A stretch of DNA of 64,000 nucleotides from Escherichia phage P1. This document shows positions 24,964 through 26,435 of this stretch, piece by piece. Numbering within the stretch: the first letter of the stretch is position 1; every line of letters begins with the position of its first letter. A program made the translations under genes and the position numbers. Below the pieces are notes generated by a model, which was not told the origin of the DNA, did not search any database, and saw nothing but the letters and a program-made list of their open reading frames with translations. The DNA lies in sequence record MH445381.1, one strand, 5' to 3'.

Positions 24964-24998
24964 ATCAATACCACTGCTTGATGAGAACCGCGCAAATG

Positions 24999-25251
24999 TT
25001 GACTATGCGCGAAGGTTAATGTGAATAGTTGACTATGCGCGATGTGACTACAGTCAAAAGTTGACTGTAGTCGATTTAACTCCACCAAAGATCGACTATG
25101 TAAGATATTGTCGGGAGAAACGTTGACTATACGCGATGAAATGCCCCTAAAAGCCATCTCAATAGCGACTTGCAGAATATTCGCCAGCAAAAATCCACCA
25201 GCGTCAACGAATGTCGCCTATAGTCAACTTCTCGCTATCGCATATAGTCAA
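24999..25251 (+). repeat. iteron-like repeats downstream of rep (incA-like control locus)
   Basis: TTGACTATGCGCGA at 24999 and 25029, variants at 25091 and 25123, inverted copies at 25214 and 25238; palindrome GACTACAGTCAA/TTGACTGTAGTC at 25046-25072. Confidence 0.7.
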
Positions 25252-25253
25252 TA

Positions 25254-26174
25254 TTATGGATTGCGCTTATGGATCTGGAAGCCGATTTTCCTGCCGTTTT
25301 TTATCTCTGAAAATTTAAGATATTCAATAGCTTCCAAATCTTTCATGGCTTTTCTGATAACGCTATTTTGCACGCTAACGGATGATTTGAGATTAAGCCT
25401 CGCTCTAAGGCGCTCAATGCTGACAGGTGCCGGGTTGGCGGGTAGAGCCTCAAAGAATGTATACAGTACCTTGGCCGTCTCTTTGCGCCCTAGTTTATCC
25501 AGCATCTTCAGCTTCAGGATTCGCTTATAGTCAACATAGTAAAGTTCAGATAGCTGTTTCTGCGGCTGGATCTCGATAACATCAAGCTCGGTATTCAGGC
25601 TGCTATATGCCAACAAGTTGACGTTAATGTTATTGAGATGACCTTTTGCCGCCGGGAAGCGGAATTTGACAACTGTCTGCTGAATGCGTGTCAGAGAGTC
25701 ATCAATACTTTTACGGAACGCCTTTGAAAGGCGCTTACGTGGATAGCCGCATCGATCGGCAAACTCGGAGAATGGCAGGGTGATTATGCCGTCATCATCA
25801 GGTGCGTAGTCAAACAACGCGGAGGTTATGCCCACCCACACCTTAAAATCAGTATCCATATCCAGGCGTGGACCATGAATTTCAATTCCCTCATAGCCTT
25901 CCTGCTCAACAATTTTGAGGCTTGATAGTTCTTCAGTTGCGTTCGTTGTGTTTGTTGTAACTGACGATCCGCGACGTAGCGCCACATTGGTAGATTTTAA
26001 GGTTGGCACAAACACACCTAAGCGCAACAAAGCGATGGGTTGTATAGTGCTGTTGTTATTGGGCTTCAGGCTGTGGATTTCTCCTGTATTTCCTGCAACT
26101 TCTTCAACGCTAAGGAAGCCTTTACTTTCTTCCGGCATCACGGTTTCTCCATGTGTGGCGCGGCCTGACGTCAA
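25254..26174 (-). CDS. iteron-type plasmid replication initiator (Rep)
   Basis: 306-aa ORF flanked by iteron arrays; differs in size from P1 RepA as I recall it (286 aa). Confidence 0.7.
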   Translation of the reverse strand: MTSGRATHGETVMPEESKGFLSVEEVAGNTGEIHSLKPNNNSTIQPIALLRLGVFVPTLKSTNVALRRGSSVTTNTTNATEELSSLKIVEQEGYEGIEIHGPRLDMDTDFKVWVGITSALFDYAPDDDGIITLPFSEFADRCGYPRKRLSKAFRKSIDDSLTRIQQTVVKFRFPAAKGHLNNINVNLLAYSSLNTELDVIEIQPQKQLSELYYVDYKRILKLKMLDKLGRKETAKVLYTFFEALPANPAPVSIERLRARLNLKSSVSVQNSVIRKAMKDLEAIEYLKFSEIKNGRKIGFQIHKRNP

Positions 26175-26182
26175 TTTGGATG

Positions 26183-26320
26183 GCTGTTATCAACAGCTGT
26201 GAATATTCAGACTCTAAAATCGCTTACAGTCAATGTTTCTGTCGCGTATAGTCAACAATAAATCGCGTGCAGTCAACAATAAATCGTGCACAGTCAACAT
26301 AAAATCGCGTATAGTCAATG
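26183..26320 (+). repeat. origin iterons plus operator palindrome upstream of rep
   Basis: Palindrome GCTGTTATCAACAGC at 26183-26197; four ~21-bp-spaced repeats TCGYGYRYAGTCAAYR at 26242, 26264, 26284, 26305. Confidence 0.7.
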
Positions 26321-26435
26321 TTGATCCCATTTCAGGCCAGTAATGACGCGGCTTACAGCGATCCGGGATCTTCTTTGGATCTTCCTAGGTTCTCTTTAGG
26401 ATCTGTTTATTGGATCTATGCTGTGGATAAGTTGA
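26321..26435 (+). other. origin-associated GATC cluster with DnaA box
   Basis: At least six GATC sites within ~100 bp and a perfect DnaA box TGTGGATAA at 26422-26430. Confidence 0.65.

Follow-up and report, generated by a model that had tools for sequence, protein, structure and literature searches.

A p0111-type iteron replicon in the place of the IncY replicon of a P1-like phage-plasmid

Introduction

Which replicon maintains an element that is filed as Escherichia phage P1, and does it belong to the IncY system of P1? This question is raised by positions 24990–26435 in a stretch of 64,000 nucleotides from sequence record MH445381.1, which was analysed as a whole and is called the window below. 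A preliminary description, made from the letters of the window, had placed here an iteron replicon that is not the one of P1 and had suggested that it was exchanged on a P1 backbone, with consequences for incompatibility. Among the cargo of P1-like phage-plasmids are ESBL, mcr-1 and toxin genes, and these elements are detected by two markers, IncY and p0111.

The p0111 replicon and its alternation with IncY are already known and published, with RCS47, SJ46 and JL22 as examples. Pfeifer et al. 2021 have described two replicase families, IncY and p0111, at one position in the P1-subgroup-1 phage-plasmids (PMC7969092). According to Ge et al. 2022, JL22 is a P1 with repA'(p0111) and gp57 instead of repA(IncY), and among 55 elements 31 were IncY and 24 p0111 (PMC9603915). 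A survey in Salmonella counted 132 elements with p0111 as compared to 94 with IncY, and about 17 type switches were inferred along the tree (PMC11165635). In the literature we found neither a biochemical or genetic dissection of the p0111 allele nor a paper that pairs p0111 with iterons. To this we add a map of the p0111 iterons at base resolution, the boundaries of the exchange, a Dam/DnaA half-origin that appears to be conserved in the P1/RepFIB family and the point that replication compatibility with IncY would still leave the par-mediated (incB) incompatibility with P1.

Results and Discussion

The locus and its initiator

Positions 24990–26435 are the plasmid-replication region inside a P1-like phage-plasmid. 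On the minus strand the order is upfA, an intergenic origin, rep, a repeat-rich spacer, a 269-aa ORF, parA and parB, and the following features were located:

21771–22772, minus strand: parB
22789–23985, minus strand: parA
24088–26440: complete p0111-type replicon module, taking the place of P1 incA-repA-oriR (NC_005856, about 61316–62930)
24154–24963, minus strand: gene for the 269-aa T5orf172/GIY-YIG-like nuclease-family protein ('gp57' of JL22), from Pfam, phrog and RefSeq
24994–25139, minus strand: distal group of the incA-like iterons after rep, with four strong members (24994, 25024, 25056 and 25118) plus 25087
25211–25256, plus strand: proximal group of the iterons after rep, consisting of 25211 (16.6 bits) and 25235 (22.9 bits)
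25254–26138, minus strand: rep, 294-aa Rep_3-type initiator, p0111 allele, from Pfam, BLASTP and phrog_775
25518–25539, plus strand: iteron-like site within the rep coding sequence, 19.2 bits with the origin-iteron matrix
26187–26206: two inverted 8/9 DnaA-box-like sites, TTATCAACA (plus) and ATATTCACA (minus), in the interval from the iterons to the rep start
26217–26323, plus strand: incC-like array of the origin, made up of five direct iterons with the consensus AAATCGCGTAtAGTCAACaata, from repeat search and weight matrix
26323–26416, no strand: six GATC (Dam) sites at 26323, 26360, 26367, 26378, 26400 and 26413
26422–26430, minus strand: perfect DnaA box TTATCCACA at the origin's outer end
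26474–26866, minus strand: upfA

The element has close relatives. Its segments 21700–26500 and 60300–60800 are 100% identical to MH422554.1 and MH445380.1, both P1-like phages that are labelled P1 in GenBank, and 97.6–99.9% identical to phi456, SJ46, JL22, Ro157c2YLVW and RCS47, with values of 97.6–98.3% for RCS47, SJ46 and JL22. Over the whole region 21659–29000 the identity to pO111_2 is 98.4%. Several of the database records for the element bear titles such as 'Escherichia phage P1' or 'Punavirus P1'.

The longest ORF of the rep region (25254–26174, minus strand) starts with a TTG at 26174 and would encode the 306 aa that had been given as the size of Rep. The ORF exists, but its product is shorter: RefSeq and GenBank annotate rep from the ATG at 26138 (885 nt = 294 aa), and a 1-nt deletion at 26173 disrupts the TTG-extended frame in pO111_2, so that the real Rep product has 294 aa. 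In the Pfam search Rep3_C was found with 27.3 bits, above its cutoff of 21.1, and Rep3_N with 22.0 bits, slightly under its cutoff of 22.4 and similar to the score of P1 RepA. From these matches Rep appears to carry both winged-helix domains of the Rep_3 initiators (WH1 = Rep3_N, WH2 = Rep3_C). It also matches phrog_775 (E=2.6e-134), whereas NCBIfam and a PDB sequence search returned no match for either Rep or the 269-aa nuclease-like protein.

The reference of PlasmidFinder for p0111 is AP010962, which is pO111_2 (PMC11165635). As threshold for p0111 typing we used about 95% identity or more to the AP010962 rep over most of its length. The rep of the window agrees with that of pO111_2 (NC_013370.1, 53598–54482; NC_013370 = AP010962) in 873 of 885 nt (98.6%) and 292 of 294 aa. 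The decision between IncY and p0111, a check that the preliminary description had named, therefore falls to p0111, and the IncY reference K02380 matches the par part of the query only. We thus regard the region, with high confidence, as the 'p0111' allelic form of the replicon that a P1-like phage-plasmid has as a plasmid prophage, the whole unit being built like P1 oriR-repA-incA. No other plasmid initiator is annotated in the two backbones that were examined, namely the pLKSZ04 region and half of pO111_2.

Iterons, GATC block and DnaA boxes

The five origin iterons start at 26217, 26239, 26260, 26281 and 26302, which gives a spacing of 22/21/21/21 bp. They are phased two helical turns apart and lie directly upstream of rep, and the p0111 repeat can be written as TCGCGTATAGTCAAC. 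A weight matrix derived from these five copies was used to scan the whole 64-kb window and led to seven extra copies with 16.6–22.9 bits, every one of them within the replicon, the top score outside the replicon being 12.8 bits.

Four of the extra copies, scoring 19.6, 20.9, 20.0 and 22.0 bits in the order of their positions and belonging to the repeat families D5/D6, form together with the degenerate in-phase iteron at 25087 (10.3 bits) the distal downstream group, with a spacing of 30–32 bp and an orientation opposite to that of the origin array. The two proximal copies share the orientation of the origin array, and the one at 25235 overlaps the rep stop codon. After rep there is consequently a cluster of six strong and one degenerate iteron with P1-like spacing and orientation split, for which a control role is predicted. 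The remaining copy lies inside rep at 25518.

Six GATC sites span 94 bp next to the array, and five of them reside within GGATCT/CGATCC heptamer-like repeats. Nowhere else in the window do 6 GATC fall within 100 nt, and such a cluster arose in 15 out of 2000 random placements of the 261 sites. Perfect DnaA boxes occur three times in the window compared to 0.59 expected by chance. The preliminary description had thus been right about the helically phased iterons at a distance of about 21 bp, the at least six GATC sites and the perfect DnaA box of the origin. Its inverted downstream iterons are confirmed for the copies from 24994 to 25118 but not for the two nearest to the rep stop codon, which are direct, and the iteron inside rep is an addition to what it contained.

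A consensus scan of the minus strand gave no convincing sigma-70 candidate for the rep promoter. By eye, the best candidate is a TTGACT as -35 within the rep-proximal iteron, followed by a poor -10. When p0111 variants were compared (67 variable columns), the changes in the iterons were located in their variable middle and left the AGTCAAC core untouched; no signal for a constraint on the iterons versus elsewhere was obtained, 67 variable columns being too few.

Boundaries of the exchanged module

P1 (NC_005856) aligns with window positions 21001–24087 at 99.1% identity, and this part includes parS, parB, parA and the operator/promoter Ppar. Across 24088–26335 there is no nucleotide alignment with P1 except for a 59-nt patch in rep with 76%. 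The homology resumes weakly at 26336, and the segment 26321–26437 is about 71% identical (83/117 positions) to P1 and P7. From about 26437 on the identity to P1 is 87–100% per 30-nt bin, the flank on the upfA side reaching about 95%. With homology that stops at 24087 and returns at about 26437, the idea of a replicon exchange on a P1 backbone is borne out.

On the origin side the junction can be placed in two ways. The P1/P7 BLAST alignment restarts at 26334–26336, right after the last iteron, and continues unbroken into the backbone, and P7 gives a megablast match to 26328–26500 with 79%. Both would fit a chimeric origin with a junction within oriR at about 26330, so that foreign iterons and a foreign Rep use the Dam/DnaA half of P1. 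We consider this unlikely, as 26321–26437, a part in which P1 and P7 hardly differ from each other, shows just about 71% identity to P1, and as a like block precedes the iterons of IncFIB(K) and pO157 RepFIB although the Reps are only 45–49% identical. Since these two share the block at such a distance between the initiators, the likeness of 26321–26437 to P1 points to conservation at the family level. Like in the RepFIB family, the GATC block and the DnaA box of p0111 lie beyond the iterons as seen from rep, and this GATC/DnaA half-origin is a conserved block across the P1/RepFIB family. Most likely, judging from these comparisons, the module brought its own complete origin and the exchanged unit comprises about 24088–26440.

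A tblastn search of PLSDB for a donor or intermediate Rep gave none between about 49% and 80% and 6 records at 80–99%, so that a donor plasmid does not seem evident in PLSDB. The IncHI2 plasmid pHum4b (87.6–89%) was rejected as a divergent lineage; its sequence is error-rich, with 36 gap openings and a rep that is broken in all frames. A scan of genome contigs for relatives, by a method that detects close relatives only, found one locus, which is 100% identical.

Distribution

The segment 24088–26335 (2.25 kb) is present in 404 PLSDB plasmids, in 391 of them at full length, and nearly all of these come from Escherichia and Salmonella. Among the matches listed, the carriers are mostly 80–130 kb and thus P1-sized. 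In a set of 5,426 complete genomes of E. coli the module is present in 419, at 469 plasmid places versus 8 chromosomal ones. PLSDB gives the MOB-suite label 'IncHI1B' to pLKSZ04 and pO111_2, whose backbone is that of P1 and not of IncHI. The swap means that the replication-control module can be exchanged as a cassette while partition, immunity and virion genes are unchanged.

The linked T5orf172 gene and the repeats after rep

Between the downstream iterons and parA the module contains the gene of the 269-aa protein, which RefSeq names 'GIY-YIG nuclease family protein'. Its N-terminal domain matches PF10544 (residues 8–85, E=6.9e-6), and phrog_2876 matches over the full length; PADLOC gave no match. 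The gene was found in 401 plasmid records as compared to 404 for the module, essentially the identical set. An independent mobility of the gene was rejected, because its distribution tracks the replicon and no diverged copies were found among the plasmids. In pO111_2 it is broken into two ORFs and therefore is not needed for maintenance.

The strict linkage in 401 versus 404 records and the position at one of the recombination boundaries would fit, as circumstantial support, a further role for this protein. It might be a homing-type nuclease that cuts IncY P1 in or near the slot and thereby copies itself and the p0111 replicon in. If true, this would account for the frequent switches from IncY to p0111 on the phage-plasmid trees, but we regard it as rather improbable.

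Improbable, too, is that the repeats after rep serve to regulate the T5orf172 gene, or are left over from a second origin, instead of being a copy-control locus. They are indeed directly upstream of the T5orf172 gene, which starts at 24963 and has the first iteron at 24994, and their number and arrangement are unlike P1 incA. However, they carry the iteron sequence of the origin at 16.6–22.9 bits, their spacing of ~31 bp, split orientation and contact with the rep stop mirror P1 incA, and neither a GATC cluster nor a perfect DnaA box is located beside them. We thus keep the copy-control locus as the preferred reading of these repeats.

Predicted replication control and incompatibility

For the working of the module, what Abeles, Austin and Chattoraj have established on P1 oriR/RepA, incC and incA can serve as a template. 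From homology and layout we infer the binding of Rep to the iterons, the dependence on DnaA and Dam, autorepression and handcuffing. In analogy to P1 and RepFIB, Rep monomers would load onto the five origin iterons, and DnaA at the flanking box or boxes would together with Rep open the adjacent GATC-rich block, for which full methylation would be required. After firing, the hemimethylated origin would be sequestered. Rep bound to the origin iterons would repress its own promoter, and the downstream iterons would titrate Rep and 'handcuff' with the origin, which may limit the plasmid to about one copy per chromosome. Together with the T5orf172 gene, the module fills exactly the IncY slot, into which it was presumably exchanged by homologous recombination in the conserved flanks towards Ppar and upfA.

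Because the iterons and Rep both differ from those of P1, the replication incompatibility of IncY is expected to be lost, and compatibility in replication control with the IncY phages P1 and P7 is expected. In previous work p0111 and IncY have been called 'theoretically compatible' (PMC7969092, PMC11165635). In the literature we found no documented pair of co-resident IncY and p0111 P1-like elements, only such statements of theoretical compatibility. The par region of the window is 99.1% identical to P1 and, over an aligned parA segment of 939 nt, 64.6% identical to P7. In P1, parABS is the incB determinant. As the P1-type parABS is kept at 99%, partition (incB) incompatibility with P1 should persist. 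The change in incompatibility would therefore be partial, and superinfection immunity with P1 should persist as well.

Comparison with known replicons

Both the p0111 module and the P1 replicon sit between upfA and parA, in one and the same genomic slot, and their initiators (286 aa for RepA of P1 and P7, 294 aa for p0111 Rep) are homologous members of the Rep_3 family. In BLASTP Rep shows 42% identity to P7 RepA across 272 aa (E=9e-71), and the same value has been reported for SJ46 RepA and P1 RepA (PMC5241659). The five iterons of P1 incC, at 7261/7283/7304/7325/7346 in L005, have the same 22/21/21/21 spacing as the p0111 origin array. P1 incA contains nine iterons as compared to 7–8 downstream of rep in the p0111 module, and its six distal iterons, with a spacing of 30–31 bp, have the opposite orientation to the three proximal ones. 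The last incA iteron of P1 abuts the repA stop codon, and likewise the second proximal iteron of p0111 overlaps that of rep. The intragenic iteron of p0111 rep has no counterpart in P1, and the iterons themselves are of the ATGTGTGCTGGAGGGAAAA type in P1 but of the TGTTGACTATACGCGATTT type in p0111 (rep strand), which do not align with each other.

On the other side of the iterons, the GATC block of p0111 aligns site by site with the Dam sites 1–5 of P1 and P7, with one site lost and one gained; compared to these, p0111 has an extra GATC that borders on the last iteron. The one outer DnaA box of p0111 is aligned to the first of the tandem pair in P1 and P7, the second being absent (7-nt alignment gap). 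Where p0111 has its two inverted 8/9 sites, a single DnaA-box-like sequence (CTATCCACA, one mismatch) is found in P1. The 269-aa gene, which in the p0111 module lies between the control iterons and Ppar, has no counterpart between incA and parA in P1 and P7.

We looked for a close alignment of rep and iterons to P1 repA, incC and incA, as expected for a member of IncY, and found none. A 42% identical Rep, differing iterons and the lack of alignment beyond the 59-nt patch thus agree with the non-P1 replicon of the preliminary description. That the module is nevertheless the own IncY replicon of P1, with iterons that the preliminary description had misjudged, could draw on a gene order, sizes, iteron number and iteron spacing nearly as in P1 and on the P1 names of several records, but this is refuted practically beyond doubt by the 42% identity of Rep to RepA, the unalignable iterons, the absence of P1 alignment over 24088–26335 apart from that 76% patch, and the match of rep to pO111_2.

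Compared to pO111_2 (from E. coli O111:H- 11128) the module shows allelic differences only, namely two residues in Rep and scattered substitutions that concentrate in the leader 26139–26211. The linked T5orf172 gene and the slot in the P1 backbone are as in the window in pO111_2, RCS47, SJ46 and JL22.

Outside of the p0111 lineage, the nearest initiators are those of pO157 RepFIB and Klebsiella IncFIB(K), with 44–49% identity between Rep and the RepFIB-type initiators on IncF and IncFIB(K) plasmids. The origins of IncFIB(K) and pO157 RepFIB follow the p0111 plan with a DnaA box, 5–6 GATC heptamers, a GC-rich spacer and iterons, and their GATC/DnaA block can be aligned to that of p0111. In IncFIB(K) five iterons at 21/22 bp are clear, but their sequence TGTCTAyTGTATGCTA is unlike that of the p0111 iteron, and RepFIB types have further iterons after rep. 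They are found in conjugative or large virulence-plasmid backbones, whereas p0111 belongs to a phage-plasmid. As its layout closely copies P1 oriR-repA-incA, the p0111 replicon is a diverged homologue or sister within the P1/RepFIB family of iteron replicons and not an unrelated type.

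Features of the p0111-type replicon module

Within the module that replaces the IncY replicon of P1, and at the packaging site of the same element, the following features were located:

24154-24963, minus strand: T5orf172/GIY-YIG-like gene (269 aa) within the swapped module, with the control iterons on one side and the par promoter on the other
25518-25539, plus strand: intragenic iteron (19.2 bits with the weight matrix from the five origin iterons), located at about codons 200-206 of rep
26187-26206: two inverted DnaA-box-like sites (8/9 matches) within the rep leader
60457-60491: cluster of four GATC sites in TGATCA/TGATCG-type hexamers, in pacA
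60587-60638: second cluster of four GATC sites in hexamers of the same types, in pacA

The T5orf172-like gene and p0111 rep are strictly co-distributed (401 vs 404 plasmid records), and in the p0111 reference plasmid pO111_2 the former is broken into two ORFs. The annotation of P1 repA has no counterpart of the iteron inside rep; this iteron may be an additional site of control, or else a copy that arose by chance or persists as a relic. Among p0111 variants the leader that separates the rep start codon from the origin iterons (26139-26211) is unusually variable: 14 of its 73 alignment columns vary, against 16 variable columns in the 885-nt rep gene itself. The plasmid pHum4b (NZ_OR724977.1, 291 kb) matches 24975-27333 at 87.6% identity, but as the alignment contains 36 gap openings and its rep is broken in all frames we rejected it as a diverged replicon lineage; the record looks like an error-rich assembly in which a P1-like segment is joined to an IncHI2 plasmid.

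In the PLSDB typing lines of pLKSZ04 (NZ_CP030285.1) and pO111_2 (NC_013370.1) MOB-suite calls the p0111 replicon 'IncHI1B', in conflict with the PlasmidFinder assignment 'p0111' for the same replicon, and pLKSZ04 is typed as 'mobilizable, MOBH' despite its P1-like backbone. Automated surveys could be misled by the 'IncHI1B' label.

Comparison with P1 and P7

Both GATC clusters in pacA are 99.6% identical to the annotated P1 pac cleavage region and thus represent the known Dam-regulated packaging site. The par region (21001-24087) is likewise of P1 type (99.1% identity), with only 64.6% identity to P7 par over the aligning 939-nt parA segment. The record OP279344.1, titled 'Escherichia phage P1 del res del mod', has a par operon of P7 type despite its name (parA 1206 nt, parB 966 nt), its parA sharing 64.6% identity with the P1-type par studied here over the aligned 939-nt segment. 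In elements that bear the name P1, the types of par and replicon therefore assort independently of each other. For the p0111-type phage-plasmid RCS47, ParA and ParB have been stated to be identical to those of P7, as relayed in the SJ46 paper (PMC5241659). In contrast, RCS47 is 98.3% identical to our sequence over 21001-29000, and by this comparison both of its Par proteins are of P1 type.
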